A stretch of 64,000 nucleotides of DNA, from positions 868,001 to 932,000 of the forward strand of contig NC_134472.1 in NCBI RefSeq assembly GCF_964194025.1, given 5' to 3'. The DNA is from Convolutriloba macropyga (taxonomy: Eukaryota). How positions within the stretch are numbered: position 1 is the first letter of the stretch; the number at the start of each line of letters is the position of its first letter. Below, piece after piece: positions 38,421 to 64,000 of this stretch. A model generated the notes under the pieces. The model was not told the origin of the DNA. It saw only the letters and a list, made by a program, of their open reading frames with translations, and ran no database searches. The translations under genes were made by a program, and so were the position numbers.

Positions 38421-38489
38421 CCAGGTAAAAGTGTTGTTCCCATTGATGGTATTCTTCACCAACGCAACAGACACAGATGATTCATTACT

Positions 38490-39900
38490 ATGACGTTATT
38501 AGCTTACTTCTGCTTTCTTAATCAATATATTCTCTTCCAGTGACACTTAGTTGCCCTCAATATATACACCATAAATTTAGCCCAAAAAGCAATCTTCAAC
38601 TTTACTTATCTCAAAATCAGCAGCATTCTCGGCTTGAAAACCAAATCAATTCATTGACCAACAATGTTCAGCCTTTCGAAGACAGCCATAGCCTGCCTAC
38701 TATCTTACTTATTGGGATATATTCAAATTATCTCAAGTAACCATCACATTTAACTTACATAAAATTTCTTCAAATGAAAAACTAAAAGAAAATGAAATTC
38801 TGATCGCATAGACAGTCTACAATAAAACTTCAGAACCAAAACTTTAAAATCTCACACGAGAACTAGCGAAGATGTGGGCTTCAAAAAATTATGGTTGCAA
38901 ATAGTATTATACTAACATGAGCGAACCTAGATCTGGCTAACATTAGATTGCAGAACTAGCAATTATAAAATACCAACTTGCACAACAAGATATCGAATCA
39001 TTAATATTGAAAATGTCACATCTCATTCGCTCACGCGCCGCAACGGACACAAGTTTTCCCATAAACCACAAACTGCCGCCAATGCCATCAAAAACACTAT
39101 AATGAACGCGCTATATGTCATTCAAAATCCCCATGCCAGTCGGGGACACAAACAGAGCACTAGTTTGGCTTCTAGAAGTCCAAAATATGCCCTTCTCGGA
39201 CGACAGAGATTACTTCAAATTAATCGACGATAACGAGCTCGAAAATTGCACTGGGTTCAAAAAATACGAAATATGCACAAAAACTATACAGAGGCAACGA
39301 AAAGCTACTTGCCTCGTACCGCTGTCAATTGGATTTTATCGAATTACCACGGACCGAAAAAGCTTGCAATTTTGGCTTTGGTCGTTGGTTAGTTACGTCG
39401 GCAAGCGACTACACAGTCTTCGAGAGCACAGTGAAAAGCAGAAATCTTTCAGCAAGTATTGAGGATACCGGATGCAGAGTTTACATAATCACTTTAGGAT
39501 TCGGAAAACAATTACGTGGACCAAACAAACAGCTAAGATCAGATATCACTGTTTTTGTTTTGGTACCGGTAACAAGACTTGAGTTCCAACTAGCCAACCC
39601 AATCAGTATTATCTTCAACCTGCTACCGCCTCTTGGGGAATTACCAAGTATCTCGTCAAGATCAGAAGCACAAAACCCAATTCTTCGTCAACGACAGCCT
39701 CAATTTCAACACACTGATTCACGGAAAATCAACACACAATCGATCCAAAAGATAGCGCAACCAATTCTGGAAAAAAATCAAGCAGTGAAGCCCAAGCTTG
39801 AAAAAAAACTGAAAGAATACATTCAGTGGTAGATGTCACTATTATTTGGATTTCTTTCTTTCCTGATAAGTGTTATTCTGCATCTCACACATTCACATTT
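38490..39900 (+). pseudogene. Degenerate envelope / class I fusion (F-like) glycoprotein of a retroelement
   Basis: The overlapping ORFs 39115-39462 and 39329-39832 join by a frameshift into a Cys-spaced ectodomain (LENCTGFKKYEIC...TCL...LPRTEKACNFGFGRWLVTS...GCRV). After an in-frame stop comes a hydrophobic TM (MSLLFGFLSFLISVILHL) and a basic tail. The 5' boundary is tentative. Confidence 0.55.
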
Positions 39901-40499
39901 TTAACATAAATTTGCAAAACTACACCGCAGGTTACGTTTCCGAATAACACACGAAGATAGAAAGATCAGAACGTAGCCAGTGTAAGTAGTTCCAACCAAT
40001 GACTTTGAATACCTACAAGAGCATCCTGAACATTCAATACATGAATCTTCACTTTTTCGCCTTTGCAAACTAAAAACAAATTTCACACCTAGAAGGACAC
40101 CGATAGCACACAAGTACATACACCGTATACGTTTTTGAGGGACATCAAACGACTGAAAACATTGCAAGAGCCCACGCTAACGGTTGAACGCATTAAGAGA
40201 CCTCCAACAGTCACTTCGCAACCAACTTACACCCATATGTCAGAATATGCACAACCAAAGGTACCAACCCATTACGTGGCCGTCCCACTCAGAACCATGG
40301 GCACCGGAACTGTCTAAAAAGAATTGAAATAAATAAAAATTGAAAATATAATTGAAAATTTCTTGAAATAAATAACGAGAAAAAATTTTTTCAACAACAT
40401 TTCAAAAACACTAACACACGAACGATTTAAAAAAATTGGACTACCAATGCCGGAAAAAACTCAAGCACTGAAATCAAAGCTTGTGAACAGACCGAAAAA

Positions 40500-41005
40500 T
40501 TACATTCCACGGAAAATGTCATTTTTGTTTTTTGGATTTCTTTCGCTCTTGATAAGTGTTTTCCTGCATCTTACATATTCACATTTTTTACACAAAAGGG
40601 CAAAACTACAACGCAGGTTGCGGTTCCGGCTAACACACGAAGAGCGAAAGATCAAAAGAAAACCTGTACAAGTAGTTGCAATAAATGACTACGAAAATCT
40701 ACAAGAGCGTCCGGAGCACGCACTATAAGAATGTTTGCTTGTTTCACCGTAGAAAACTAAGGGCAAATTCGACACGCAGCAGGAAACCAATAGCACACGT
40801 GTACGTACGCATTTTTTGTCGAATTACATCAAACGTCTGAAAAGGTCGGGAAAACCCACGCTAACGATTTTAAAACGGAACATACCTCCAACTGCATATT
40901 CCCAGTGAACTTACACTACTGTACTAGAAATTTCACAAGCAAAACTGCCCACCCATTACGGGGCGTACCCACTCAGAACCGTGAACACTGAAAGTGTCTA
41001 AAAGA
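40500..41005 (+). repeat. Second copy of the env-like TM/cytoplasmic tail
   Basis: ORF 40447-40728 (MSFLFFGFLSLLISVFLHLTYSHF...ERPEH) is homologous to 39830-40320. Confidence 0.85.
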
Positions 41006-42239
41006 ATTAAAAAATCTGCAAATAAAAAACCTGAAGTACTTTTTTTCAACAAACGTCCGAAGAGGAAAAACGCCTCAGACTGATTTAAAAAAAACGTGTC
41101 GGGCAAAAAATTAAATTCTAAAATGAAAGTGCGATATCTCAAAAATTAGAAGAGCTGCATCAATCCTCAACTCAAACTTTCAGCCCGAAAATGAATAACT
41201 CAAAAAAAGAATAGCGGTTCCTAAAGCTGCTAGTGGAACCGGGATTAATGTCATCCCTAAGTTTTTACTCAAATATTCACTAATTTCATTCTCTACAAAC
41301 AAAATTTTCTATAAAAAGACAAAAAGAAGCAGTGCCAGTATGGACAGTAATTTTGCATTTCATTTTCACCTTTCTAACACCCCCTACAATCCGAACATTT
41401 ACTTTTTTCTAACAATTATTTTCATTCAACGTTCGAAAACCATCAAACCGATACTTGTACACGACTTATGCATTTAATCACTTTGTTGTTTACCAAAAAG
41501 AAAAACGAGAAGGACAGGGGGCAATTATTTTACGAATATCCTACATTAAACCGGGTGAGTTGGATTGAAAAAAAAACTATTTCTTGTGAATTCGTTATTC
41601 ATTTATTATGCGACTGAGTTTATATCAAACTTTTGAAGGCAATTACTGCCCAACCATTAAATGACGTACCCACTCAGAACCGAAAGTGTCTAAAAAGAAA
41701 TAAAATATCTCCAAAAAAGCGAGACATTTTTCAACATTTTTTCGAACGGGAAACACTTTCGAGCCTGAAACATTTCTTTGGGACGATTAAATTTGAAAAA
41801 AAAATTAGGTGTTGGAAAACAACAAAGTGAATAACCTTCGGACTAAAAATTTAGAATAATCGTTTTCGCGCACCCCGCGGAACTCGGATTACAATCATTC
41901 CTAAGTTTTTCCTCAAAAATGCACCAATTTCAGAATTTGAAAAAAAATGAAATTGCACAAATTTTGAGAAAAACTCAAAACAAATTTCACATTGCCAATC
42001 TCAATAATCTCTTAAGCACAGCTCTGTTATCAGTTCAAGCTCCGAAGAAGTTTGCTCCTTATTAGTCTCAGTCAGACTTTAGTGTAAAAACCGTAGAAAA
42101 TAACGCGAATTACAAATTAGCAACATTTTTATTATTCCAACAAAGAAAAATAATAAGTTTCTTCAATTTCAGAATCCAAAAAAGATCAAAAAGAAAAACT
42201 TGAATTCTTAACTGAACACAAAACAGGGGATTTACTTCA

Positions 42240-43440
42240 GAAGAGGAAAATTATTTGCGAAAAGCAGCATTTTTATTTTCGGCACTTGACTGCACCTAAC
42301 AAACACCAGTAGCATCTTGCGAGATTGAAAAAAAGAAATTTCGAATCGCTGAACCAATTTATGAATTCTTAATCGAAAAACAAAACCTTTTTAAGTCCTT
42401 TAACCAATCTAATGGAACCAACGATAGTTACAGAATTCAACTTTTTTAATCAGGAACCAATTATGCAATTTAATATCCGCCAGGAACTTACGCTTAACGA
42501 AACTGTAGCCCTACACACAAGTCCTGTAAAAACTGAAAACTCTTGCCCTGTTTGATCGGAAGTTCAAAATTGCATGAACACAAATACCCAAAACGAGAAC
42601 ATTGATTTCATATTCCACACTCCAATAATCAGTGGTAGTATCCTCCGACAAACAAATCCAATCCGCAATACCCCAGAATCCCCTCTTTACGACAACATTC
42701 CCGACATACCTTTAAACTCTCCCACAATTGCAAGTTCTCCTTTTAGCCAATCCCCTTCCTCGCCATGAACAATAGCAAACCATCCCGACCACATCAATGG
42801 CAAGTCCTCTAATCTTGAATTTGTTCCCCTTGAACAGTCTGAAGAAACCATCCCATATTTCAATTTCTTACTCATTTGCTTTGTTTATGTATTTTTATAT
42901 CGATTTTGGAAATTCCTTATGTTATTTTATTTTATTTGTGGATAACCACTCTTGGAAACACCACCCATTAGGTACTTTTTGAAAAAAAATCTCCATCATA
43001 CCTCGATATCACATAATAGAATTTAACATCAAAGAATTTTTAAATGGGGAATAACTAAGATGAGCAATTTCAACCACAGCAACAAGTGATCCATCATAAA
43101 CCAGGATCAATATCGAATAGACACCGAATCCAAGTATACCCTAAAAAAGTCCCTTTCTCGAGGTACATATATTCATGGAATGACAGAAGATAGAAGCAGG
43201 GCACATCCGATGACTACATTATTGGCAACAACGCAGTCATATTCCTTTTATTAAATTTACAGAGCCCGGTTATAACCTATGAACAGTCACTTACTGTTCC
43301 TTATGGGTACGATTTTGTACTCAGCTCCCTAGAAAACGCTTCTCATATACCCTTGAATATACATATAACATCAACAATGAAAGAAATAACAATTCCCAAT
43401 AACGCCCAAAAGTATCAATCGATTCCCAGCCTCATCAAAT
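42240..43440 (+). pseudogene. Decayed orphan ORF-like module X
   Basis: Colinear diverged homologue on the minus strand at ~61680-62950; shared peptides include FRIAEPIYEF/LRMAEPAYEF and PLILNLFPLNSLKKPSHI/PLLLNFFLLSTLKKPSYI. Confidence 0.5.
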
Positions 43441-44534
43441 GAAACAAAGAGCTCTCATACAAATAAGGAAACAAAGAGAGCCAAACGCTTTTTTGACAAC
43501 AACAAAAACCGAAAATATTAAAAACAAAAATCATTGGCCTTTCTAACGAAAAAAACCATTGTCCTCTCAGCCATCCTTTTTATAAGTTCTTTGAAAAGAA
43601 TTTTTAAAATAAAATAGACAATAGGAAGCACTGCTCCTCTTTACTTTACATTTTTTATTATAGTGCTGACAGTAATCTTGTAGGGCATTTTCACTTATAT
43701 TACATCCCCTACAAGACAGAGATTTACTTTTTTCTAACAACTATTTTCATTCAACGTTCCAAAACCATCAAACCGATATTTTACACGTCTTATGCATTCA
43801 CAGCTTTTTATACCTTTTAAGGGTGACAGCTTGATAGTTTTTGGGTTTTATGATACAGAATGCATTCAAAATTACAAAACTAAAAGTCTCCTTCAAAACG
43901 GAAAACCAACAAGTTCAAGCTACTTCTATGACAACAGTTTCTTCCTACAACTTAATGCACAACATAGCCGACTAACGTCGAACTCATTGCTACAAATCGA
44001 CAGGCAAGCGGTCTACTTCCGCATTGACTGGCTAGCATAGAGTTACACCTCAAAGGAGGGAAAAGCGAGTGACCCAAAATCATCCCCTTACACAATGACT
44101 TCTAGCAGCTTCGGTGAATATTATACTTAGAGCTCTAAGAGAACTGCTGAGGGAATTTTTGCCCTCCGGGAAAGAAATCTCCTAACGGATTTGCGTTCTG
44201 TATTAAATAGATAGAAAGAGATACAGATAAGTTGAAAAAAATATCGATACCGCCCAAAAAGCTATGCATAAAACATTCGCGATAAATTAATACAGCTTGC
44301 TAAAATTTATAACGCAGAGTTCTTTTTAATGGGGACCTTTATTACATATACGAGTTCTTTGTTCTTCAAATAATGCAAATTAGACTAAAGTTTTGAAGTC
44401 CAAAGTTCATTTTATTGAATAAGGTAAATAAAATTGATCAAGCAAATCATCTAAAAACTTGTAAATGTTTTGTACATGCTCATTAACATATGAGGAGCCA
44501 GTGACGTCCTTATCTCTCTCAAATGCCCATTGTA

Positions 44535-46445
44535 AAGCGGCTTCCTTGCCTTCGTCAATCAAAATTGTCTCAACCCAAACGAACCCCTGACCCAAATGAA
44601 AAAAATGTCGTTTGGGCAACTCTCGCATTACTTTGTTAATTACCGAAAAGAAAAAACGAGAAGGACACGGGGCAATTGTTTCAAGAATATCCTACATTAA
44701 ACCGAGTGAGTTGAATCGACAAAAAACTATTTGTTTTCTCTATGGATTTATTATTCATTTTTTATGCGCCTGAATTTATATCAAACTATTAATATTCAAC
44801 CATATTTGTACTCAAATTCAAGATAATAACTCCGAGTAATCGTCACAAGGTCAGGCAATTACTGCCCACCCATAGGGTGGCGTACCCACTCAGAACCACT
44901 CACTAATTATTTTCAATCAACACCCCAAAACGATCACACCCAGATTTGTACACCTTTTATGCATTTCATTTCTTTATATTTTAAGTGAAAGAGAAAAAAG
45001 GACACGGGGAAATTGTTTTACGATTATTCTACGTCAAGCCGGGTGAGTCTGATTGTCAAAAAACTATTTGTTTTCTTTAAAAATTGTTATGCGCCTGAAC
45101 ATATGTCAAACTATAATGTTCAATCATATTTGTACTCAAAATTCACGATCTCAACTCTGAATAACAACATTCAAATGATGGGGCAATTAAATTAATCAAT
45201 ATTCACACCTGTCGTCGCTCAAAATTTGAAAACTAAAACTCACGTTAAAGATCTGAAGGATACCTTGGAGGCAGTAAAGTATACACCATTGAGTCTTCTT
45301 TGACCATTGAGGCAGTTCCCGTTTCATGTGACTTCTTAGACCTACGCACACCCCAACCTTTTTCTCAAACGGTCTCTTGTCTTTGTAAATTTATTCCTTA
45401 CTAGATTGTAAATATTCTGTAACATCTGTTCCGTAACGTTCTAAAGCAGGAGCCTTGTCTTCATCATTCCAAATTGTCTCAACACAAACGAGCCTCTGAC
45501 CCAAATGAAAAAAATGTCGTTTGGGCAACTCTCGCATTACTTTGTTAATTACCGAGAAAAAGAGAAGGACACGGGGCAATTGTTTTACGAATATCCTTTA
45601 TTAAACAGGGTGAGTTGGATTGACAAAAAACTATTTCTTTTCTCAATGAATTTATTATTTGTTTATTATGCGCCTGAATTTATATCAAACTAATAATGTT
45701 CAACCATATCTGTACTCAAACTCAGAATAATAACTCCGAGTAATCGTCACAAGGTCAGACAATTGTTGCAATTCCAATAAGTTGGCGTATCCCTTCAGAA
45801 CCATTCACTAAATATTTTCAATCAACACCCCAAAACGATCACACCCAGATTTGTACACCTTTTATGCATTTCATTTCTTTTAAGTGAAAGATAAAAAGAA
45901 GGATACGGGAAATTATTTTATTATTATCCTACGTCAAGCCGGTTAAGTCTGATTGTCAAAAAACGATTTGTTTTCTTTAAAAAATGATATGCGCCTGAAC
46001 ATATATCAAACTATAATCTATAATGTTCCACAATATTTGTACTCATACTTCACGATCTCAACTCTGAAAAAAAAACATCCAAATGATGGGGCAATTAAAT
46101 TAATCAATAATCACACCTGTCGTAGCTCAAAATATGAAAACTAAAACTCACGTTAAAGCTCTGAAGGATACCTTGGAGGCAGTAAAGTATACACAATTGA
46201 GTCTTCTTTGACCATTGACGCAGTTCCCGTTTCATCCGACTTCTTAGACCTACGCACACCCCAACCTTTTTCTCAAACGGTCTCCTGTCTTTGTGAATTT
46301 ATTCCCTACTAGATTGTAGATGTTCTGTAACATCTGTTCCTTAACGTTCTAAAGCGGCTTCCTTGCCTTCGTCATTCCAAATTGTTTCAACCCAAACAAG
46401 CCCCTGACCCAAATGAAACAAATGTCGTTTGGGCAACTCTCGCAT
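44535..46445. repeat. Nested ~0.91-kb tandem duplication inside unit 1, itself containing a ~350-bp sub-repeat
   Basis: 44535-45442 is similar to 45443-46350, with a third copy at ~55393-56293. Confidence 0.88.
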
Positions 46446-49400
46446 TTCGTAAATTGTGTGCCTCTCAGCCAGTAAATAAGGAAACCCCAGCTGCATTGTT
46501 AAAACATCAAGGGCACGGAGTGAAGGCTGACATGAAGCTCGAGACTTATTTGATATATAGAACTAAATATCACTCGGTAGCTCACTATCTTTAGCACCAT
46601 GTTTAACTCCACGAAAATCTGGGGTGTTGCTACAACTATATCCAATGTAACGGACTTGTAGCTCCCACAGGAGAAAAAAAAGTTTTTCTACAATTGTTTT
46701 TGTTATGCTATCACTCCCGCCTATTTCTATATGTGATCGTGTCCACCAAGAACCTAACTGAATCAATACATCTCTCAAATTACAATCTAAAATGAAGGAA
46801 ATTTCTCCTTTTAATGTTTCTTCCATATGAAATATCCAGTCGCCTGAGCCATACAAACATCCACAGACTGATACCTCAGTTTTTAAGTATGATTCGTCAC
46901 AATAGGCTGGCATATGATCAAAAAGCTTTCAACGTGCTTTACATCAGCAAGCGCTTCCCGTTCTCAACTGAAACAATTCACGAAACCGAAACAGAAACCA
47001 AGACTTGCTACTTGATGGGTTTTCCAAGCCATTCCAACCCATGAAGAATCCGTTTACAAAAAATGAAAAAAAAATCTGTCTATTAAAAGAACGAGCTGAA
47101 TTCTTGTTGAACAAAAATGTAAACAAGATGCCTAAATAAGAAATGCACAGCACGGTTGATTCATTGATTGTAAAATTAAATTTTATAAAACTCAGTGCAA
47201 TTGTTCATCCCCAGAAATTAATCGGAAAAGGAAATACAAAGTCCGCCCTTGAAATTTTAACGTTAGGAGGAGACCTCCTACTAGAACCACTCTACAGAAA
47301 GTACCCATAACGGGCAACTCTCAAAAATTCACTAAAATTGTAAAAAAGAATCTAGTGTTTAAATGAGGAAGTCATTTTTGATATTGACGTGTTACCAAAA
47401 ACCTAAGGACGCGAATGAACAAAAAACTGGATGAACAAAAATGACTTAACACTCGCACATCAATTGAAATTGCACGAACAGATGAACAAAAAGAAGATTT
47501 GAAGTGGTAATGACGTCATTTGGTAGTAATGAGAACCTTTACGGCAACATAAAAAGCCAAGAGAAGGCCAAAAATAAAACAGGTTATCGCTGTGCGGCTA
47601 TTAATAAAAATGTGGCTATTAAAAGAAGGAGGGCACCGTAAAACAATTTTGATGACTATAGCGTACGAAGCATAGAATATAAATCATCACTAATTTTAGC
47701 TTTCACAGCTTATTAAACCGTTTTAGGGTGACAACTTGATAGTTCTTATGACACAGAATGCATTCAAAAGTACAAAACTATAAGTCTCCTTTCAAAACGG
47801 ATTACAAACGAGTTCCAGTTACTTCTATGACAACAGTTTCTTCCTACAACTTATTGAACAACATCACCGACTAACGTCGAGGACATTGCTACTAATCGCC
47901 CGGAAAGCGGTCAACATCGGCATTGACTGGCTAGTAAAGAGGTAAGCCTCAACGGAGGGAAAAGCGAGTGACCCAAAATCATCCCTTTACACCATGACTT
48001 TTATCAGCTCCGGTGAATATTACACTTAGAGCTCTAAAAGAACTGCTGAGTGACTAGTGACTTTTTGCCCTCCGGGAATTGAATCTCTTCGCGGACTTGC
48101 GTTCCATATTAAATAGATAGGAACAGGTACAGACATGTTGAAAAAATTATCGATACTGCTCAGAAGCTATGCATAAAACTTTCGACCATTAATTGATACA
48201 ACTTGCTAAAACTTAGTACGCAGAACTCTTTCAAATAGGGACCTTTAATACATATACAAGTTCTTTGTTCTTCAACTAATGCAAATTGGACTAAAGATTT
48301 GAAGTCCAAAGTTCATTTTATTGAGTAAGGTAAACAAAACTAATCAACAAAATCATCTAAAAACTTGTAAATATATTGTACATGTTCCGTAACATCTGAC
48401 GAGCCAGGGACGTCCTTCTCTCTCTTCAATGCCCATTCTAAAGCGGCTTCCTTGCCTTCGTCAGTCAAATTTGTCTCTTTTCGTATCGAGCCGGTGACCT
48501 AAATGAAGTAAATGTCTTTTGGGCAACTGTCGCATTTTGTAAATTATCTGCTTTCCAGTCAGTAAATCAGGGGAATCCGGCTGCCATAGATGAAACAGCA
48601 TGAGCACGGAGTGATGACTGACATAAGAGTCTAGACCTATTTGGTATATAGAAAAGATTTTACTGGGTAGCTCACTAGCTTTAAGGCCACGTTTAATTAA
48701 CTCCATAAAATTCTAGGTTGTTCCTACAACTTTATCCAATGCAAAGGACGGGTAGCTCCCACAAGAGGGCAAAAGATTCTCAACAATTTTCTTTATATAA
48801 TATCACTCCCACCTATTTCTCTATGTGGCCGCGTCAAACAAGAATCTAACTGAATCATTACACTCTCCTGTTACAATCTAAAATGGAGGGAACTTCCTCA
48901 TATTGAATTCCTTTAATATTAAATATCCAGTCGCCTGAGCAATGCAAAGATTCATAGACTGATAGCTTAGTATTTAAGTAAAATTCGTCTCGATAGGCTG
49001 GCATATGATCAAAAAACTTTCTTTTCTCAACCTGCTTTACATCATTCCGCGCTTTCGAATATCTAATGGCAACTCAGGCCAATCGTTTTTACCAACTATT
49101 GATCACCAACTAACTTAGCCCTCGACTGATGCCCACTCTTCATTCCACGACCTTCCACCCATGGAACTTCTTTCTGTCAAAGATCTTCTTACCAATCCCT
49201 CTCTGGCTAATCGTGCTTAAATTTAATTATAACACCCAGTATGTCGTCTCTGTCGGATACGCCTAAAGAAGGCCATATTAAAACCTTTGCAGAAAAAAAC
49301 AAAATCCTTAAAACCATAAACAAATCGATACTTTCGGGTTGTGTTGATAGAAGAGTTGACAACTTTAACCCAGTAAACTGTCTCGCCATAACACGTCCCT

Positions 49401-51199
49401 GGAATACAAAATAAAAACTCGACAAATAACAAAATGAATTTCAAAAAACCTCAGAAAATACAACCCATAAATTAAGAATCCAGCCCCCTTCCCCCAAAAA
49501 CTTGTATCAAAATCTCGAGACTGTTAGCATTCAATAGAACTATTATATTATTCCAATGAAAATCAAAACTTCAATTAAAACCCTCCTCGAGATTAATCTA
49601 CCTCAAATGCCGACGATCTAGTTTTTAACACAGTATAATAAGGTAAAGACACTGGGGAACCATACCTATAATTTCCATGCAGTACAAAAATTGAATTTAG
49701 TTCTCTCAATTCTAATTGCTAAGCATCTCAAATGCACTACTACTAAAAGACACTGTTTTGCCTTTGACGCCAACTTAGAAAAAACAACACTGCCAGTGCC
49801 GCCATCAATAGCTGAATTGGAACGCTAATCCGTTGGTCTCCAGACGCCTGAACTCACACACCGCAAACTGATCGACGAAAAGGAAAGAAAGCTGCCATTC
49901 CTGCTTTCAAGAAAAAAAATGTATTATGCTCACAACAAAAGGTAAAAGAAACGTTCGTTGTGAAGTCTCTCATACGCAACACTTGCATACAGAAAATGAC
50001 AAGATAAAACCACCAATCTGTGCATTTCTCACATGAAACACGTTACAAAATTGAAACAAAAACATATACTTACTACTTAATGGGATTTCCATGCCACTCC
50101 AAAACACGACTCCGATTCAAAAAAGATTGGAAAATATTTTCTGTATTTTAATAGATTGATCTAAATCCTGATTGAACAAAAAAGCATAAAGAAAAAAAGC
50201 ACGGCACGGTTGAGTAATTGATTGTAAAATTAAATCTTAAAAAATTCAGTGCAATTATTCATATCCGGCATTTCTAATTTTCCAATCTTTGCAAAATACC
50301 GGACGTTTGCGAGCCTAAACATTTAGAAATTAGTTGGAAAAGGAAACACAAAGCCCGCCCTTGAAACTTTAACGTTAGGAGGAGACCTCTTACTAGAACC
50401 AACCTACAAGGAGTCCCCATAACGGGCAACACTCAAGAATTCGCTAATCTGGGTAAAAATTATCTTGCGTTTAAGTGAGAAAATCATTTTTGAGAGTGAC
50501 GGGTGACCAAAACTTTATGACGCGAATGAACAAAAAACTGGCTCCTCAAAGTAAATCAAAAAGGCGTCACACATGCACATCAAATGAAATTACATCAACG
50601 GATGAACAAAAAGAACATTTGAAGTTGTTACGACGTCATTTGATTGTAACGAAAATCTTTAATGCGAAATGAAAAACCAAGAGAAGGCCAAAGATAGAAC
50701 AAGCTATCGCTGTGCGGCTATTAATAAAAATCACTAATACAGAAGTCAAACTGAGTCACGTGAACGAGTCTCGAAAGCCCAAATTCAAATACTGTTTACT
50801 GACTCCACTTTCGAAGCAAAGATTTAACCCCCTAAAACTACTCGCCTTTTGCTTCTTTTACTGCTCTAATGTGACTGAAATCTAATAAATTTATTTTTTT
50901 TGGACAAGTTATCAAAAATGTGAACAGATCTTTAAAAGACAGCACCCCAAAACACTTCAAAATCTTTGAATGTGATGCATTCTTCGAATGGCACAATTCA
51001 CGCTTAATTCTCGGGTTTATTACAGACAGCTATTAAGTGAAATCAATTCGCATTGCGTGGCAAGATAGTAATCAGAACTTCTGCAAATCATCAGACTCGC
51101 AAAAAGAAGGAGGGCACCGTAAAACATTTTTGATGATTATTGAGTACGAAGCATAGAATATAAATCATCACTAATTTTAGCTTTCACAGCTTATTACAC

Positions 51200-52520
51200 C
51201 TTTTAAGGATGACAACTTGATAGTTCTTATGACACAGAATGCATTAAAAAAAACAAAACTAAAAGTCTCCATTCAAAACGGAATACAAACGAGTTCCAGT
51301 CACTTCTATGACAACAGTTTCTTCCTACAACTTATTGAACAACATCACCGACTAACGTCGAGGACATTGCTACCAATCGCCCGGAAAGCGGTCAACATCG
51401 GCATTGACTGGCTAGTGTAGAGGTAAGCCTCAACGGAGGGAAAAGCGAGTGACCCAAAATCATCCCATTCCACCATGACTTTTAGCAGTTTCGGTTAATA
51501 TTACAATTAGAGCTCTAAGGGAGCTGCTGAGGGGCTTTTTGCCCTTCGGGATTGGAATCTCCTCACGGACTTGCGTTCCGTATTATATAGATAGAAACAG
51601 ATACAGATAAGTTGAAAAAATTATCGATACTGCCCAAAAAGCTATGCATAAAACTTTCGACCATAAATTGATACAACTTGCTAAAACTTAGTACGCAGAA
51701 CTCTTTCAAATAGGGACCTTTAATACATATACAAGTTCTTTGCTCTTCAACTAATGCAAATTGGACTAAAGATTTGAAGTCCAAAGTTCATTTTATTGAG
51801 TAAGGTAAACAAAACTAATCAAGAAAATCATCTAAAAACTTGTAAATATATTGTACATGTTCCGTAACATCTGACGAGCCAGGGACGTCCTTCTCTCTCT
51901 TCAATGCCCATTCTAAAGCGGCTTCCTTGCCTTCGTCAGTCAAAATTGTCTCTTTTCGTATCGAGCCGGTGACCTAAATGAATTAGATGTCATTTGGGCA
52001 ACTCTCGCATTTCGTAAATTATGTGCTTTCCAGTCAGTAAATAAGGAGACTCTGTCTGCCATGGATGAAATAGCATGAGCACGGAGTGATGACTGACATA
52101 AGAGTCTAGACATATTTGATATATAGAACAAATATTACTAGGTAGCTCACTAGCTTTAGGACCACGTTTAATTAACTCCATGGAATTCCGGGTTATTCCT
52201 ACAACTTTATCCAATGCAAAGGACGGGTAGCTCCCACAAGAGGGCAAAAGATTCTCAACTACTTTCTTTATATAGTATCACTCCCACCTATTTCTCTATG
52301 TGGCCGCGCCAAACAAGAACCTAACTTAATCATTACACTCTCCTGTTACAATCTAAAATGGAGGAGGGTACTTCCCCCATATTGAATTCCTTCAATATTA
52401 AATATCCAGACGCCTGAGCAATGCAAACATTCAAAGGCTGATAGCTTAGTATTTAAGCAAAATTCGTCTCGATAGGATGAAATATGATCAAAAAACTTTT
52501 CTCAACCTGCTTTACATCAG
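51200..52520 (-). pseudogene. Decayed orphan ORF Y (antisense to the env-like gene); best-preserved copy
   Basis: Minus-strand fragments 51990-52247 and 51563-51784, with homologous fragments 46563-46913, 48461-48706, 44407-44628 and 55310-55531, tile into a single protein-like sequence of roughly 400 aa. Confidence 0.5.
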
Positions 52521-55500
52521 TCCGCGCTTTCGAATATCTAATGGAAACTCAGGCCAATCGTTTTTACCAACTATTGATACCCTCTACTCACCAACTAACT
52601 TAGCCCTAGACTGATGCCCACTCTTTATTCCACGATCTTCCACCCACGGAACTTCTTTCTAGCAAAGATCTATTAACCAATCCCTCTCTGGCTAATCCTG
52701 CTTAAATTTAATTATAACACCCAGTATGTCGTTTCCGTCGGATACGCCTAAAGAAGGCCATATTCAAACTTTTGCCGAAAAAAACAAAGTCCCTAAAACC
52801 ATAAACAAATCAATACTTTCGGGTTGTGTTGATAGAAGAGTTGACATCTTTAACCCAGGAAACTGTCTCGCCATAACACGTCCCTGGAATACTAAATAAA
52901 AACTCGACAAATAACAAAACCAACAATTTAAAAAAACCTCAGAAAAAACAACCCATAAAGGAGGAATCTAGCCCCCTTCCCCCACAAATTTGTATCAAAA
53001 TCTCGTGACTATTAGCATTCAATAGAATTATTATATATTCAAAAGAAAATCAAAACTGCCATTAATAACCCTCCTCGCCAATAATCTACCTCAATTGACG
53101 ACAATCCACTTTTTAACACACAGTATAATAAGGTAAAGACATTGGGGAACCACATCTACAGTTTCCATGCGGTACAAAAATTGAATTTAGTTCACTCAAA
53201 TCTAATTGCTAAAAATCTCAAAGGCAATACTACTAAATGACACTGTTTTGCCTTTGACGCCAACTTAGAAAGAACAACACTGCCAGTGCCGCTATCAATA
53301 GCTGAATTGGAACGCTAATCCGTTGGACTCCAGACGCCTGAACTCACACACAGCAAACTGATTGACGAAAAGGAAAGAAGACTGTCATTCGTGCCTTCAA
53401 GAAAGAAAATGTGTTATGCTAAAAACAAGTGGCAAAAGAATCGTTCACTGTGAACTCTTTCAAATGCAATACTTGCATACAGAAAAAGACAAAATAAAGC
53501 CGCAAATCTGTGCATTTCTCACCTGAAATTAATTACAAAATTGAATCAAAAACATGGACTTACTACTTAATGGGATTTCCAAGCCACTCCAAAACATGAC
53601 TCCGATTCAAAAGGGGTTGGAAAAAATTTCCTGTATATCAATAGAATGAACTGAATTCTGATTGAACAAAAAAGCATAAATAAGAAAAGCACGGCACGGT
53701 TGATTCATTGATTGTAAAATTAGATCTTAACAAACTCAATGCAATTATTCAACCCCAGAATTTCTGATTTTCCCATCTTTGCAAAATACCGGACGTTTGC
53801 GAGCCTTAACATTTAGAAATTAGTTGGAAAAGGAAACACAAAGCCCGCCCTTGAAACTTTAACGTTAGGAGGAGACTTCTTACTGGAACCACCCTACAGA
53901 GAGTCCCCATAACGGGCAACACTCAAGAATTCAATAATTTTGGTAAAAATTATCTAGCGTTTAAGAGAGGAAATAAATTTTGAGAGTGACGTGTGACCAA
54001 AAACTTAATGACGCGAATGAACAAAAAACTGGCGTCTCAGAGTAAATAAAAAGGCGTCACACACGCACATCAATTGAACTTGTATCATTAGATGAACAAG
54101 ATTTGAAGTGGTTATGACGTCATTTGATTGTAACGAAAATCTTGACAGCGAAATAAAAAACCAAAAGAACGCCACAAATAGAACAGGCTATCACTGTGCG
54201 GCTATTAATAAAAATCACTAATACAGAATTCAAACTGAGGCACATGAAAGAATCTCAAAAGCCAAAATTCAATTACTTTTTTCTGACTCCACTTTCGAAG
54301 CAATGATAAAACCCCTTAAAACATCTAGCTTTTCGCTCCTTTTACTGCTCTAATGTGACTGAAATCTCTCGCATAAATCTATTTTTTCTGACAAGTTAAC
54401 AAAAATGTGAACAGATCTTCAAAATACAGCACCCCAAAACAAATCAAAATCTTTGAATGTGATGCATTCTTCGAACGGCACAATTCACGCTTAATTCTCG
54501 GGTTTATTACAGACAGCTATTAAGTAAAATCAATTTGCATTGCGTGGCAAGATAGTAATCAGAACTTCTGCAAATTATCAGACTCGCGCAAAAAGAAGGA
54601 GGGCACCGTAAAACATTTTTGATGATTATAGAGTACGAAGCATAGAATATAAATCATCACTAATTTTAGCTTTCACAAACTATTACAATTTTAAGGGTGA
54701 CAGCTTTATAGTTATGGGGTTCTATGATACAGAATGCTTTCAAAAGTACAAAACTAAAAGTCTCCGTCAAAACGGAATACAAACGAATTCGAGTTACTTC
54801 TATGACAACAGTTTCGTACTACAACTTATTGAACAACACCGACTAATCTGAGAACATTGCTACCAATCGACCGGCAAGCGGTCTACTTCAGCCTAGACTG
54901 GCTAGCATAGAGGTATGTCTCAACGGCGGAAAAAGCGAGTGACCCCATGCCTTCACACCGTGACGTTTAGCAGCTTCGGTGAAAAATACACTTAGAGCTC
55001 TAAGACAGCGGCTGAATGACTAGTAAAATTTTGCCCTCCGGGAATTGAATCTTTTCGCGGACTTGCGTTCCGTATTAAATAGGTAGAAACAGGTACAGAC
55101 AAAATGAAAAAATTATCGATACCGCTCAAAAGCTATGCATAAAACTTTCGGCCATAAAATAATACAGCTTGCTAATATTTATAACGGGGAATTCTTTTTA
55201 ATAGGAACCTTTATTACACATACGAATTCTTTGTTTTTCAACTAATGCAAATTAAATTAAGGCTTTGGAGTGCAAAGTTCATTTTATTGAGTAAGGTGAA
55301 CAAAATTGATCAAGCTTTGTAAATGTATTGTACATGTTCCGTAACATCTGACGAGCCATTGACGTCCTTCTCTCTCTCCAATGCCCATTCTAATGCAGCT
55401 TCCTTGCCTTCGTCATTCAAAATTGTCTCAACCCAAACGAGCCCCTGACCCAAATGAAAAAAACGTCGTTTGGGAAACTCTCGCATTACTTTGTTAATTA

Positions 55501-58500
55501 CCGAAAAGAAAAACGAGAAGGACACGGGCAATTGTTTTACGATTATCCTACATTAAAACCGGGTGAGATGGATTGACAAAAAACTATTTTTTTCCCTATG
55601 AATTTATTATTCATTTATTATGCGCCTGAATTTTTATCAACTTACTAATGATCAACCATTTTTGTACTCAAATTCAGGATAATAACTCCGAGTAATCGTC
55701 ACGAGGTCAGGCAATTACTGCCCTCCCATTAGGTGGCATACAAATTCAGAACCATTCACTAAATATTTTCAATCAACACCCCAAAACGATCACAACCAGA
55801 TTTGTACACCTCTCATGCATTTCATTACTTTATATTTTACGAAAAAGAGAAAAAGGACACGGGGAAATTATTTTACGATTATTCTACATTCAGCCGGTTG
55901 ACTCTGATTGCCGAAAAGCCATTTGTTTTCTTAAAAAATTATGCGCCTGAACATATATCAAACTATAATGTTCAACCAACTTTGTACTCATACTTCACAA
56001 TCTCAACTCTGAATAACAACCTCCAAATGACAGGGCAACCAATTTAATCAATATTCAGACCTGTCGTAGCTCAAAAGTTGAAAACTAAAACTCACGTTAA
56101 AGCTCTGAAGGATACCTTGGAGGCAGGAAAGTATACACAATTGAATCTTCTTTGACCATTGACGCAGTTCCCGTTTCATCCGACTTCTTAGACCTACGCA
56201 CACCCCAACCTTTTTCTCAAACGGTCTCTTGTCTTTGTAAATTTATTCCCTACTAGATTGTAAATGTTCTGTAACATCTGTTCCGTAACGTTCTAAAGCG
56301 GCTTCCTTGCCTCCATCATTCCAAATTGTCTCAACCCAAACGAATCCTTGACCCAAATGAAACAAATGTCTTTTGGACAACTCTCGCAATTGTGCTTTGC
56401 AGTCAGTAAATAAGGAGACTACGGCTTTAAATAGGGACCTTAATTACAGATACGAGTTTTTTGACCGTCAACTAATGCAAACTAGACTAAAATTTGGAAG
56501 TGCAAAGTTCATTTTATTGAGTAAGTTAAACAGAATTGAACAGGCAAATCATCTAAATACTTGTAAATGTATTGTATCTGTTCCGTAACATCTGACAAGC
56601 CAGGGGCGTCTTTTTCTCTCTTCAATGCCTTTTTTAAAGCGGCTTCCTTTCCTTCGTCGTTCAAAATTGTCTCAATTCATATCGAGCCCGTGACCTAAAT
56701 GAAGTAAATGTCATTTGGGCAACTCTCGAATTTCTTAAATTATGTGCTTTCCAGTCAGTAAATAAGGAGACTCCGGCTGCCATAGTTGAAACAGCTTGAG
56801 CACGGAGTAATGACTGATATAAGAGCCTAGACCTAATTGGTATATAGAACAAATTTCACTAGGTAGCTCACTTTCGGACCACGTTTAATTAACTCCATGA
56901 AATTCTGGGTTGTTCCTACAACTTTATCCAATGCAATGGACGTGTAAATCCCACAAGAGAGAAAAAACTTTCTACAATTGTTTTTGATACAGTATCACTC
57001 TCACCTATTTCTCTAGGTGGTAGTTTCCACCAAAAACCTAACTGAATCATTACACTCTACTGTTACAATCTAAAATGGATGGAACTTCTCCATAAAAAAC
57101 TTCTTCAATATTAAATATCCAGTCATCCTAGCAATACAAAATTCATAGGCTGATACCTTAGCATATAAGAAAGATTCGTCTCGATAGGCTGGCATATGAT
57201 CAAAAAAACTTTCAACCTGCTTTACATCAGTCGGCGCTTTCGAATATCTAATGGCAACTTAGGCCAATCGTTTTTACCAACTATTGATACCCTCCGTCCT
57301 CCAAATAACTTAGCCCTCATGTGATGCCACTCTTCATTTCGCAACTTTCCACCCATGGAACTTCTTTCTACCAAAGTTCTATTAACCAATCTCTCTCTAG
57401 GTAATCCTGATTAAATTTAATTATAACACCCAGCATGTCACGTCTCTGCCGGGTACACCAGAGAAGGCCATATTAAAGGTTTTGCAAAAAACAAAATCTT
57501 TAAAATCAGAAACAAACCGATATTTTGGGTTGTGTTGATAGAATATTTGACATCTTTAACCCAGTAAACTGTCTCGCCATAACACTTCCCTGGAAAATTA
57601 ATTTGCATGCAGTAAAAAAATTGAAGTTAATTCACTCAAATCTTATTGCTAAAAATCTCAAATGCAATACTACTAAAAGGCACTATTTTGCCTTTGAGGC
57701 CAACTTAAAAAAAAAACAACACTGCCAGTGCCGCTGTCAATAGCTGAGTTGGAACGCTAATCTGTTGGGCTCCAGATTCTCAACTCACACACAGCAAACT
57801 GATCGACGAAAAGGAAAAAACTGCCATTGCTGCATTCAAGAAAGAAAATGTAATATGCTCACAAATGGCAAAAAAATCGTTCGTTGTGAACTCTCTCATA
57901 CGCAACACTTGCAAACAGAAAATGACAAAATAAAGCCACAAATCTGTGCATTTCTCACCTGAAATTAATTACAAAATTGAATCAAAAACATAGAATTACT
58001 ACTCAATTGGGTTTCCATGCCACTCCAAACCATGAATCCGATGCACTTAAATGGAAAATCTTTCCTGTCTATCAATAGAATGAACTGAAATCTGATTGAA
58101 CAAAAAAGCATATATATGAAAAGCACGGCACGGTTTATTCATTGATTGCAAAATTAGTTTTTGCGAAACTTAGAGCAATTATTTACACTCATAACTTCTA
58201 AATTGCCCCATCTTTGCAGAAAACAGGACGTTCGAGCTAAAACGAGCTCATACACATAATTTGGAAAAAGAAACACAAAGCCCGCCCTTGAAACTTCAAC
58301 GTTAGGAGAAATTCACCTACCAGAACCGCTCTACAGAGAGCCACCATAACGGACAACAGTCAAAAATTCACTAATATTAGAAAAAGAACATAGTGTTTAA
58401 GGGAGGAAGTCATTTTTGAGAGTGACGTGTGACCATAACTTATTCAACCCAGTGAGCCAAAAAACGGCTTCACTCAGAGTGAAAAAATGACGTTACGCAC

Positions 58501-58929
58501 GCACATCATTGAAACTGTTTGTATGAACGAATGAACAAAAAAGAAGACTTGAACTGGTTCTGACGTCATTTGGTCGTAACGGGAATCTTGACGACAAAAC
58601 AAAAAACCAAAAGAAGGCTATCGCTGTACGGCTAAAAATAAAAATCAGTAAAACAGGAGTCAAACTGTGTCCGAAACTCAAATACAGTTTTCTGCCTCCA
58701 CTTTCGAAGCAAAGTTTCAACCCCTTAAAACTACTCATTTTTCGCTCCTTTAACTGCTCTAATTTGACTGAAATCTCTCCTATAATTTTATTTTCATTGA
58801 AAAGTCCACAAAAAACGTGAACATCTCTTCAAAAGACAGCACTCCAATACAATTCGAAGTCCTTGAATGGTATGAATTCTTCGAATGGTACAATTCAAGC
58901 TTATTGTTTGAGCTTATTGTCCGAGCATA

Positions 58930-61900
58930 GTGGTTCTAATAGTAGTTTTCCTACTAATTTTTAGGTCCCAAGTACGTTTTTTGTGTTTCTTTTACCAAAT
59001 TTTTTCTAAGTGTTTAGTATCGTAGGCGTCATGTATTCGGATAATAAAAGAATTTCTTACAAGTTCTGAGAATAAAGAGTTGCACTGAGTTTCGCGAGAA
59101 TGCATTTGAAAAAGAACGAATAAAACTCGCGAAGCATTTCTTTTCATACTTTTTTTTTACATTTTCGACCAATCAGAATTGAGTTCGTTCTATTGATATA
59201 TAGGAAATATTTTACGATTTTTGCCCGATATTGCGGCTACCTAGAAAAGCGTTTACCATGGGTTGGAAAACCCTTTAACATGTGAGTTCGAGTTCTGGTT
59301 TTCAGTTGTGTCAAGTTTTTCAGTGGTGAAATGTTGAGTTTCGTTGCTTTGTTGTGCGTGCCGGTATGTACAAGTGTTGCTTGTGAAAGAGTTCATAAGA
59401 ATGAGTCTGTTGTGATTTGATGCCAACGAAATACAACTTTTATTGTTGAGGGCCGCAACGTCAGTTTTAAGGCTTATCGTCACTCTCTTTGTGGTGTGTG
59501 GGTGGAGGCATCAGGTGCCCCAGGGATAAGATTCACAATTATCCCCATAGTAATTGCGTTGGTAGTTGGAGTTCTAAAGTGCTGGAAGAGAATACCCCGG
59601 CAGATTGCATTAGCGAGAGCAGTAGTAGTAGTGAAGACTAGAAGCTGAGTTAATGGAACTTTTCCTCAAGCCTTTTGAATAGTATCAAATAATTTGATTC
59701 CCAAGTGTTTTTTTTTAGGTTTGGTGGGAGCGGAAAAATGACTGATCGAAATTGGGGCAATTTTAATGAGAACGTTGATTGTAAATCAACGATTTGAATT
59801 TCATTTGAAAATATACTAATTCGATTGACTGATAACGGTCACGAGTTTTTGATACTTATTGTTGGGCGGGTGTAGATTCGTCCTATTTTGGATTGTTCAC
59901 TGGACTTTATTTGGAAGTTTTCTGGTTTTGTTATTTGTCGATTTTATCATTAATTCAGAGAAGTGTTATGGCTCGACAGTTTACTAGGTTAAAGGTGTCA
60001 AATATTTTATCGACACATCCAGAAAGGTTCGTTTTTTATAGTTTTAAATTTTTTCTTTTTGTAAAACTTTTAATATGGCGTTGCTTAGGCGTACCCGTTA
60101 AAACAGTGATCTATTGGGGGATATAAATAGGTCTCAGGAGGAGTATCTAAAGAGGGGTAAGTTTATAGAACTTGGGTGGAAAGAAGTTTCATAGGTTTAC
60201 GGTTTTGGGAAGAAGAGTTGGCATCAGTTAAGGGCTAAGTTAGTTGAAAAGGGGGAGTCACTAGTGGGTGAAAACGGTTGGCCGAATTTGCCGTTACCGA
60301 TTCGAATTGAAGAAACAGTCGGGTAAACGGAAAACTTTTGCAGAGAAGTGGAAGCGCTTGCTGATATAAATTAAGTTGAAATTCATGAATTTAAGCTAAG
60401 ATATCAGCCTATGAATATTTGTATGCTTCACGCGACTGGATATTTAATAATGAAGGAATTTTAAATGAAGAAATTTCCTTCATTTTAGATGGTAATAAGA
60501 GAGATGTAATATTTCAGTTAGGTTCCTGGTGCACAGGATCACATGTAGAATAAGGTGGGAGTGGTAGTATATCAAAAACAACTGTAGGAAAACTTTTTCT
60601 CTCTTGTGGGAACAACACGTCCATTGCATTTGATATAGTTTTAGTAACAGCCCAGAATTTCATGGAGTTCGTTGAACGTGGTCCTAACGATAGTGATCTA
60701 CCGATTGCTATTTGGTTCTATATATCAAAAAAGTCTAGTGTTTTATGTCAGCCATCACTCATGATTGAAGAGTTGCCCAAAGGACATTTAATTCATTTGG
60801 GTGAGGGGCTTGAAAAAGAGTTGCTGAGAAAATTTTGAAAGACAAAGGCAAGGAAGCCGCTTTAGAATGGGCATTAAGGAGAGCTGCTGACGTCGGTGGC
60901 TCCCCAATGTTACGGAAAATATACAATCTTCATTTAAAAAAGGAATTTACTATGACTAAGAGACCATATAAGAAAAGAATTAAGTGAGAAAGGCGTGTGT
61001 AAGTCTAAGGAACAGAGTGAAACGAGAACTGTGGGTGAGAAGCAAGAAGACACATTGTGTACAATTTCCTGCCTCCAAAGGATCCTTCCAAGCTTTTCTA
61101 TGTTTTAATTTTTATTATTTCGTTTAGGGCAGGTCTGAATGTTGAGGTGAAAGTAATTGCCCGACCTTTTAGAAATTGTTATTCAGAGTTCAGATTGTGA
61201 TTTATGTGTACATATATGGTTGAACAATAGTGGTTTGATACAAGTTCAGGCGCATAATAGTTTTTTTTCGAAAACGATTCGATCTTTTCATCAATTCGAA
61301 TTACCCGGTTTGATGTAGGATATTCGTAAAAATTACTTGCCACGTGTCTTTTCCACGTGAATAAAGTAATAACGTGCATAGGAGGTGTACAACTCTTCAT
61401 TTGGTGGTTTTTGAGGTGTTGGGGAAAAGTATTTGTTAGAAAATTTCAAATTGTATTTTTGTGAAGAATGTAAAATAGGTGAATATTGAATACAAAATAA
61501 CTGCTCATACTATATTTTTCCTTGTGAAGAGAAGCAGTGCTTCTTTTTTGTCTTTTTTTAGTTTCTTCTGTTTTAAGTACTAGAGTTTTGTTTAGATTGT
61601 ACGACGGTTTTGCCGTGAGAAAATACAATGCTTTTGTTGTTTACGCGAATGATTACGTCCAAAAGCATTTATTCTCTTTCTTCATTCCTTCGATAGCATT
61701 TTAGTTGGTTTAGAGGGGATATGAAGGAAAATTTTGTGCTTTATTGGGAGTTGTGGTTTTATTCATTGTAGATGTTATATGTCCGTTCTAGGATATGTGA
61801 GATGGGATTTTCCAGAAATCAAGGTATAAGATTGTACTCGTAAAAATTGGGGTGGAGCGTGACAATTTTAGGGTAAATCCGTGCTCTGTAAATTCAACAA

Positions 61901-64000
61901 AAAGGGAAATGAAGTCATCAAATGTGCCAAGAATCTGTCTTCGGGCGTGCCATAAATATATGTACACGGGGAAAGGGAGTAACTTAGGGATATAATTGGC
62001 GTCGGGGTCCTGTCGGTATTGATCCCAGTGCATGAAGGGTGAGTTCTTGATATGGTTTAAATTATTCATTTCAGTGGTTGAGGTTAGTTAATTGAATTCT
62101 CCGTTTAAAATTTCTTCGGTACCTAAATCTATGAAACTATATCGAGGTATGATGGGGAATTTTTCTCAAAAATTTTTTATGGGTTGTGTCTTCAAAAGTC
62201 ATTATCCGGAATACAATTTTTTTGTCAGGAATTTGAGGTAGCGATTTCAATAATATCAGGAAATATTGAAATGGATATAAAAATACAAAAATAATATAAA
62301 CCGTGTAGGTACAAAATCAATATAAGATGGTTTTTTCAGAGTGCTCAAGAGAAAGAAATTCAGGAGTAGAGGACCTGGACATTGATGTAATATGGGTAGC
62401 TTGCAGTTGTTTATGGCGAGGAAGGCGGTTGGCTGAAGGGCGAACTTGAAATTGGGGAACGGGTCAAAGGTTCGTCGAAATAATCTCGTAATCTGGGGTG
62501 TCAGGTATTGGATTAGAATGTTGCGAATGTTTGGGGATACTACCAATGGTTATTGGGGTGTGGAATATGAAGTCAATGTTCGCGTTTTGGGTTATTGTGC
62601 TTAAACAATTTTGAATTTCTGACCATACAGGAGAGTAGTATTCAAATACTACAGGGTACGTGTGGAGGGTTACAGTTTCATTAATAAAAAATTCCTGGCG
62701 GATATAAAGTTGAATAAGCGGTTCTTGATTTTAAAAAAAGAAATTCTGTAACTGTTGATAGTTGCATTATAATGGTAGAAGGTAAAAATAGGGTTTTGTT
62801 TTTCAAAAAAGAATTCATAAGCTGGTTCAGCCATTCGAAGTTTCTTACTCTTCCAAACTGGCAATATAATATTGGTTTCTATTTGGTGCAGTCAAATGAA
62901 AAAAAAACAAAATTACTGCGTTTCTTAATTATTTCCGCTCTTCTGAAATTTATTCCCTATATTGCGATTGGTTGAGAAATCAGTTTTTTCTTTTCGCTTT
63001 AGTTTTTTTGTTTTTCTTCGAGTACAATTTTCATTTATTTGATTCTGTTTCGTGGCAGGCAAGTTGTTTTATTTAAGTGACAGGCGTTATTCAGGCGACA
63101 TCCGGGAAACCGTTATTCTTTTTTCTGAATCCGAATTCTGGGCTGAATATTAGAGGGTCGTAGCTCTTCTAGTTTTCAAGACGTTGCACCAGTTGAAATG
63201 TTTTTGACGCTTGTAATTTTTTCAAAATTAGTCTTCAAAGGAAAATTTTTGGACTAGGCATTTTTTTCCATTTTTTGTTGAGAAAAAAATTTTGGTCGAG
63301 ATTTTAATCCGGGTTTGCGAGGATCCCGGTGAAACCTTATTCTTTTTTGTGAGTCCGAATTCTGGGCTGAATATTAGAGGGTCGTAGCTCTTCTAGTTTT
63401 CAAGACATTGCACCAGTTGAAATTTTTTTGACGCTTGTAATTTTTTCAAAATTAGTCTTCAAAGGAAAATTTTTGGACTAGGCATTTTTTCCATTTTTTG
63501 TTGAGAAAAAAATTTTGGTCGCGACTTTGATCCCGGTTTGCGAGGAGCTCGGGGGGCAGTTATTCTATATTTTGATTCCGAAAGTCGGGCTATAAGTTTG
63601 AGGTCCGTAGTTCTTCTAGTTCTTGAGATATCGCACATTAAATTTAATAAATTTTTCCAACACTTAATTTTTTCTCAAATTTGATCTTCTCAAGGAAAAG
63701 TTTCTGGAATTAGGCGTTTTTCCGGTACGAAATTTTGTCGAAAAATTTTTCCCGTTCTTTTATTTCAAGAAACTTCAATTCTTTTTGGACAGTTCCCGCG
63801 TTCATGATTCTGAGTGGGTACGCCCCATAATGGGTTGCTAGCTTTGGTTGTGGATGTTCTGATATATGAGTGTAAGTTGGTTGGGAAGTGACTGTTGGTC
63901 TGTTAATATGTTCAAACTTTAGCATGGGCTCTTCCAATCTTTTCAGTCATTTGATGTAGTCCCTCAAAAACGTGTACTTGTGTGCTATCGGTGTCCTGCT
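58930..64000 (-). mobile_element. Inverted, more diverged copy of the 40-50 kb module series (runs off the window end)
   Basis: Reverse-complement matches: 63770-64000 to 40090-40330; 61680-62950 to 42240-43440; 60960-61400 to 44930-45370; 60400-60900 to 48400-48970; 59900-60300 to 49060-49460; 58960-59220 to 50140-50350. Confidence 0.85.
63113..63760. repeat. ~224-bp tandem repeat, 3 units
   Basis: Units start TTATTCT at 63113, 63337 and 63560; the first two are nearly identical and the third is diverged. A related inverted sequence lies at ~41050-41215. Confidence 0.9.

Follow-up and report, generated by a model that had tools for sequence, protein, structure and literature searches.

From 38.5 to 64 kb, the 64,000-nucleotide window analysed here (G000:C5:868001-932000, in a 1.18-Gb animal assembly) holds decayed copies of one family of 14.6-kb Ty3/Gypsy-type long terminal repeat (LTR) elements. 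The anatomy of intact copies elsewhere in the assembly is, virtually beyond doubt, LTR-gag-pol-env-B-C-D-[Y antisense]-[W antisense]-LTR. On profile and structural predictions, the antisense gene Y very probably encodes an active JmjC oxygenase. We lean, with some reserve, towards the fuller reading that Y acts on histones as the element's own demethylase against host silencing.

Natural 14.6-kb copies carry gag, pol (1635-1720 amino acids, aa), env (~790-800 aa) and a further 4.8 kb up to the 3' LTR. The LTRs are 340 bp long; the two LTRs of an element match at 100% and 99.7% in the youngest copies and at 100%, 99.4% and 99.1% in sister subfamilies. Target duplications of 5 bp were exact in seven of the eight elements with both ends paired, the eighth having a mismatch. 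The family has been dispersed recently. Element termini are TAT...ATA, not TG...CA, and a primer-binding-site (PBS)-like 11-mer, TGGCGACAGAG, ends in the CCA complement; PBS plus leader occurs at 51 exact genomic sites, as compared with 0 for the control. Pfam analysis of the natural 1720-aa pol frame gave reverse transcriptase (RT), RNase H and the integrase zinc-finger above cut-off, and protease and the integrase core below it. These domains follow gag in the Ty3/Gypsy order (protease, RT, RNase H, integrase), a YVDD motif is present, and the best PDB matches of the RT were to foamy-virus RT (E 9e-30) and Ty3 (1e-26). Gag gave a Pfam match only at E 0.21. The separate env open reading frame (ORF) is predicted to encode an F-type protein: Atlas features place it at 0.94-0.96 to the Baculo_F and Fusion_gly clusters, and it carries an RKPR furin-like site at 144, a hydrophobic stretch at 148 and a transmembrane segment at 643, while searches by sequence against Pfam and the PDB returned no matches.

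Two further copies of the family have other structures. At G000:C2:40817035-40827822 (L014-L015) three tandem 3.6-kb units, 99.5% identical, each hold a pol tail plus env. At L029/L030 (G000:C12:16131877-16142000) a young ~6-kb copy, 99% identical, runs directly from LTR-PBS into the env tail, followed by the entire accessory region; it is a non-autonomous derivative, without gag-pol and with an open Y.

In young copies env is followed by sense B (145 aa), C (105 aa) and D (110 aa) and then by antisense Y (378 aa) and W (83-90 aa), and all 16 further elements likewise have an antisense Y after env, B and C. B, C, D, Y and W are all under purifying selection. Codon tests gave an omega of 0-0.58, where defined, for B, C, D and W, and of 0.26-0.28 for Y within subfamilies, so that codon-level constraint, which an earlier note on this DNA had proposed looking for, is present in every one of these genes. 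C and D are paralogous (hhalign 95%, E 1.7e-8), and B has no detectable relationship to C. No Pfam family was matched by B, C, D or W, profiles of B and W found nothing in the PDB, and the 10 relatives of C are all unnamed. At its N-terminus W has a signal-like segment and at its C-terminus a hydrophobic one, with four cysteines (C...CC...C); by manual reading, 13 of 15 loci have a W-like ORF upstream of the JmjC gene, L057 and L063 being doubtful. We do not count as genes two short ORFs, A (77 aa) and 'F' (64 aa, lacking a Met), which were seen in subfamily I-like copies alone. The subfamily III copy L037/L038 (G000:C4:49835000-49840000) has its B-C pair in four tandem repeats, and L039 and L041, also of subfamily III, have an extra ~92-aa sense ORF (MPVLFAADPP...) between Y and W that is absent in subfamily I.

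The strand on which these genes are read is clear from the young copies. In five of five, all three sense frames over Y hold 9-30 stops and every sense frame over W at least one, with the antisense frame open in both cases. The earlier note had named four accessory ORFs 3' of env: X, an antisense Y, a sense Z and a Cys-rich peptide. Z proves to be read from the strand opposite the Y N-terminus, and the Cys-rich peptide from the strand opposite W. Both quoted peptides do occur in the sequence, but both are interrupted by stops in the window; we reject them as genes and regard two of the four ORFs as wrong-strand shadows of Y and W. X corresponds to three separate ORFs, B, C and D, rather than to one. 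The remark that none of the products resembles a recognised family stands for the orphans B, C and D; it fails for Y, which profile searches, AlphaFold and Foldseek all place with JmjC, and W had been missed on its true strand.

A genome search with Y gave at least 113 matches (109 of 899 candidates scored), of which about 46, by manual count, are stop-free over at least 340 aa; they form groups at ~100, 64 and 52% identity. Between subfamilies, third-position differences in Y are two- to threefold above second-position differences. The nonsynonymous proportion (pN) is 0.22-0.33 against a saturated synonymous proportion (pS) of 0.75-0.80, and because deep synonymous divergence is saturated, deep omega values are bounds only. 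Subfamilies I and II are 99% identical in pol and env, as compared with 49% in B, 56% in C, 47% in D and 64% in Y, and a third combination has type-I B/C/D with type-II Y. These mosaics therefore indicate that the accessory region has been exchanged by recombination on a near-identical gag-pol-env backbone.

Several lines of evidence identify Y as a divergent JmjC 2-oxoglutarate (2OG) oxygenase. Atlas pointed to JmjC (0.96), with a recognition value just below the tool's 2300 mark, and a profile search of the 50% library found 219 relatives at E <= 0.001. Weak Pfam JmjC or JmjC_2 matches, all below cut-off, were obtained with 6 of 46 tested relatives (E 0.01-0.05). A 123-row Y profile searched against the PDB matched KDM7-family chains only (9 of 9, best E 0.004), and in the profile alignment T166, H169, E171, K186 and H246 of Y fall on the PHF8 ligands T-D-F-H-I-D...G-E-K...H. 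The AlphaFold model made with the 123-row alignment had a predicted local distance difference test score (pLDDT) of 87 and a predicted template modelling score (pTM) of 0.84. Foldseek matched it to ceKDM7A at E 4.3e-10, ranks 1-13 being KDM7 family, and VIA aligned 276 residues with ceKDM7A (Z 15.2, root-mean-square deviation 5.0), with PHF2 at Z 14.5, JMJD5 at 14.3, KDM2A at 14.2 and JMJD6 at 13.7; the first 16 VIA rows were all JmjC. A first model, from a shallow alignment (pLDDT 40, Foldseek matches not significant), was not used as evidence. The metal-binding triad is intact in 50 of the 67 library relatives that span it, 48 of the 67 also having the 2OG lysine, while among the open genomic copies, taken from loci picked for long open frames, all 22 have the triad and 21 the lysine.

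We conclude that the predicted fold and active site of Y are well supported. Its substrate is not, because the residues of the KDM7 pocket and a reader domain are absent. For the same reasons we have not placed Y as a member of the KDM7/KDM2 group; on profile evidence it would define a JmjC family invisible to Pfam, with at least 219 clusters at 50% identity.

Besides the saturation already described, a number of observations weigh against the demethylase proposal. Pfam PF02373 did not match Y, and its matches in relatives were below cut-off, a limit of detection in which no defining biochemical feature is at issue; PDB searches with the single Y sequence and with a shallow 19-row profile returned no JmjC match. 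Identity to the structural neighbours is only 10-13%, and JMJD5, a hydroxylase, ties with KDM7A, PHF2 and KDM2A within 1 Z unit. No reader domain (PHD, CXXC) was found in Y by Pfam. Y lacks the Phe at His+3 and the Tyr at His+10 of PHF8, and has a conserved G-W-E where KDMs have Asn. W was not detected in subfamily II, and W-like ORFs are absent in both type-II Y copies. Finally, none of six host JmjC loci scores significantly against the Y profile; therefore no donor KDM is identified, and capture of Y from a current host KDM is rejected. One host gene, read as KDM5-like (L051, G000:C2:54516994-54520344), is a single 1450-aa open frame, apparently intronless there.

The role we propose is as follows. 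W and Y would be made from an antisense transcript starting near the 3' LTR, W as a small cell-surface protein. Y, whose C-terminal tail is rich in Lys and Arg, would enter the nucleus by means of that tail and strip repressive methyl marks from proviral chromatin; these may be of the H3K9me2/H3K27me2 type, the peptides named in the PDB titles of KDM7 structures. Copies so treated could stay transcribed. A SET-domain ORF beside two of four Y-family loci outside LTR elements (see below) suggests a chromatin context.

A JmjC oxygenase need not act on histones, and Y might instead hydroxylate or demethylate a non-histone target in the manner of JMJD5 or JMJD6, whether a host small-RNA or restriction protein or one of the element's own proteins. 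The closeness of the JMJD5 and JMJD6 Z scores to those of KDM7, the lack of a reader domain, the unconserved pocket residues and the company of a membrane-type W are all compatible with this; the exclusive KDM7 matches of both the sequence profile and the leading Foldseek ranks, the basic tail and the neighbouring SET genes speak for chromatin, and we consider a non-histone target possible though rather unlikely. It is improbable that Y retains a JmjC fold without catalysis, as a chromatin-binding decoy or an anti-silencing scaffold: several neighbours of the KDM active site are replaced and branches in the JmjC tree are longer than those in the integrase tree, yet triad and 2OG lysine persist among relatives of 20-35% identity. 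That the accessory ORFs are silent passengers, or that Z and the Cys-rich peptide are real genes, is largely refuted and very improbable, for although every window copy is broken, the antisense frames are the open ones, third positions differ more than second positions between subfamilies, and Y yields a coherent enzyme fold.

The Y family extends well beyond these elements. More distant relatives lie in gag-pol-env elements at 10 of 10 loci, nine of them antisense between integrase and env and one after env, with LTR-like repeats at 8 of the 10. Of still more distant relatives, four of eight loci have an LTR context; at the other four, outside LTR elements, a SET-domain ORF lies within ~3 kb in two, one of which (L087) also has a tyrosine-recombinase-like ORF. 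Integrase and JmjC trees are concordant on two groups: a 9-member mid group, starred in each tree, and the post-env group, which is not starred and has support of 84/89 and 83/81. In two JmjC clades non-LTR copies are interleaved with LTR copies; these trees have 18 and 32 rows from loci picked for long open frames, and are midpoint-rooted, the direction of transfer lying outside their scope. Library relatives compared with this assembly had best identities of 42% and 45% for two, 99% for one, and no match at E <= 1e-50 for another. The family thus likely reaches other genomes, since some of these relatives are not from this assembly.

The two SET-adjacent ORFs of the JmjC family are at L087 4069-9860 and L101 4388-8872, and large tandem arrays (174-179 bp) adjoin L087 and L090. 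At G000:C6:30432302-30445677 a 4.1-kb repeat occurs four times in tandem, and every unit contains an open 379-aa frame of the JmjC family.

Taken together, we tentatively envisage, at somewhat less than even confidence, an old radiation of enveloped animal retroelements with their own active histone demethylase, of an undescribed JmjC family, on an antisense two-gene cassette. This cassette would have moved between pol-env and post-env slots, been swapped between sister lineages and been traded with SET-bearing non-LTR mobile elements.

In the window itself, self-BLAST confirmed both the repeated modules of the earlier note and its inverted copy at 58.9-64 kb, and delimited tandem units of 3.5-4 kb at 43.8-58.9 kb. 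The features are, in order:

38462-40961, forward strand: env remnant of the left copy, with stops, frameshifts and a large internal deletion; its C-terminal part is duplicated at 40402-40959.
42345-43358, forward strand: decayed sense ORFs of the left copy, B 42345-42732, C 42799-43051 and D 43122-43358, from tblastn with natural intact ORFs.
43794-44460, no strand: non-element module, repeated at ~47621, ~51102 and ~54591; its long matches are all local, among them G000:C5:942589-943461 next to the 5' LTR of the inverted copy.
44440-46928, reverse strand: broken Y (JmjC-like) pieces, 44440-44635, 45248-45538 and 46156-46928.
47076-47219, forward strand: partial LTR remnant.
48364-49276, reverse strand: broken Y copy; the former ORF Z (~49065, forward) is its opposite strand.
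49776-49955, reverse strand: broken W copy; the former Cys-rich module at ~49790 was read from the other strand.
50108-50398, forward strand: LTR remnant (tandem unit 2); part of another dispersed repeat comes next.
51839-52733, reverse strand: broken Y copy of tandem unit 3.
53266-53445, reverse strand: broken W copy of unit 3.
53621-53903, forward strand: LTR remnant of unit 3.
55295-57466, reverse strand: broken Y pieces of unit 4, 55295-55501, 56100-56387 and 56560-57466.
57710-57900, reverse strand: broken W copy, from six-frame translation with no tblastn row; QHCQCRCQ...ERKC is its opposite strand.
58055-58348, forward strand: LTR remnant of unit 4.
58934-59222, reverse strand: 3' LTR of the inverted full-length copy.
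59331-59576, forward strand: W belonging to the inverted copy, on the antisense strand of the element; it has one stop and shares 61% identity with an intact W.
60075-61095, forward strand: Y (JmjC-like) belonging to the inverted copy, on the antisense strand of the element; it shares 60-75% identity with intact Y and contains stops, frameshifts and an internal deletion.
61762-62834, reverse strand: decayed D 61762-62069, C 62091-62382 and B 62476-62834 of the inverted copy, the former ORF X.
63102-63721, no strand: 224-bp tandem repeats in the post-env spacer, absent in three young copies tested.
63827-64000, reverse strand: C-terminal end of env in the inverted copy, whose remaining env, pol, gag and 5' LTR lie further right, up to ~10.5 kb beyond the window.

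Beyond 40.8 kb no ORF of more than 121 aa starts in the window, and all local copies of the element are therefore decayed. The inverted copy is an old full-length member of the family: to the right of the window come env, pol, gag and, ~10.5 kb away, a 5' LTR (G000:C5:~942170-942501), and its LTR pair is 79% identical. Used as a query, it gave at least 104 matches (40 scored of 297 candidates) at more than 30 dispersed loci. The left copy begins at env, and no gag, pol or 5' LTR matches were found to its left. The units at 43.8-58.9 kb, 77-91% alike across the Y core, include DNA from outside the element; the long matches of this DNA are confined to the neighbourhood, for example the flank beside the 5' LTR of the inverted copy. 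The 44-59 kb expansion arose after insertion, when flanking DNA and the element's 3' end were duplicated locally in tandem; such units are not element anatomy, an interpretation that we rejected on account of their non-element DNA. Contigs of two public runs cover window-like sequence in 30 of 30 bins; they come from one study, possibly from the source sample, and are not independent.

The central proposal of the earlier note, decayed copies of one large env-bearing element with several accessory genes 3' of env on both strands, is thus borne out, the arrangement being co-linear at many dispersed loci. To the right of position 64000, where the note had suggested looking for an intact element with LTRs or TIRs and a replicase, lie env, pol, gag and 5' LTR of the old copy; intact young copies are elsewhere, and the terminal module of the note is the 3' LTR. 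The order env tail, B/C/D, antisense Y, terminal module recurs in intact copies; the expanded order at 40-59 kb is a local rearrangement, and the 224-bp repeats belong to the inverted copy and not to the young copies tested.

In the remainder of the window, two coding stretches on the forward strand (5168-6022 and ~30200-30570), which we take to be adenylate-kinase-like by motif, are accompanied by a third piece (27631-27782) that matches the first at 75%. Direct repeats of 2.6 kb, 98% identical, lie at 14787-17398 and 20882-23472; overlapping ORFs of 511 and 356 aa (17789-20229) stand between them, possibly in a young LTR-like element without pol.

If our proposal is correct, a retroelement erases host heterochromatin marks with an enzyme of its own. 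We know of few element-encoded countermeasures of defined chemistry. Silencing of LTR elements in animal hosts is described as proceeding largely via repressive histone methylation at H3K9 (PMC9406493), and with a conserved JmjC enzyme carried by animal LTR elements that moved recently, a single 378-aa protein is enough to test whether transposons enzymatically erase their own silencing. A role would also be found for one of the antisense additional ORFs, a class of which PMC7264820 states that the function is unknown.

We found no JmjC-bearing LTR element in the literature, although supplements, Repbase/Dfam and subscription journals, which lay outside the search, could hold one. This window contributes the post-env position of Y, its pairing with W, the tests of selection and the predicted fold. 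Extra ORFs or enzymes in LTR elements are known from the ORF3 types of rotifers (PMC5408684), whose abstract does not name JmjC, and from planarian Burro (PMC6431247), where JmjC occurs 0 times in the main text; fungal TET+ DNA transposons (PMC12730594; likewise 0 times in the main text) share an enzyme with unrelated mobile elements. The elements Grande, RIRE2, Retand and Boty have conserved extra ORFs between pol and 3' LTR, some of them antisense, and for the plant antisense ORFs the source gives no known function (PMC7264820).

Among enzymes, the KDM7 family (PHF8, KDM7A, PHF2) and JMJD5/JMJD6 share with Y the predicted fold, the H-x-D/E...H triad and the Thr and Lys 2OG ligands at PHF8 spacing; Y differs in its low identity (10-13%), lack of a PHD finger, other pocket residues and Glu for Asp. 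Among elements, F-type env-carrying Ty3/gypsy elements are widespread in invertebrates (Chary and Hayashi, PMC13524379). The 'ancient errantiviruses' of that report have the same LTR-gag-pol-env order, an F-type env and several near-identical copies in a non-insect invertebrate genome; the words JmjC, accessory, antisense and demethylase occur 0 times in its main text, whereas the present elements have 4.8 kb of accessory genes after env. The endogenised giant viruses of Amoebidium carry KDM4-like genes that are also JmjC-only, without reader domains, in genomic parasites, and are discussed in relation to H3K9me3 silencing (PMC11244446). These are intron-containing, Pfam-detectable KDM4 paralogs of a giant DNA virus, whereas Y is a single open frame in a retroelement, invisible to Pfam and nearest to KDM7. 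The orchid Ty3/Gypsy elements with an AlkB N6-methyladenosine (m6A) RNA demethylase offer the parallel of an LTR lineage that fixed an extra 2OG oxygenase ORF, also with a proposed counter-defence role (PMC9289625). There the enzyme is AlkB, its target RNA and its host a plant; here it is a predicted JmjC protein, encoded antisense in env-bearing elements of an animal, and found in different slots and element types.

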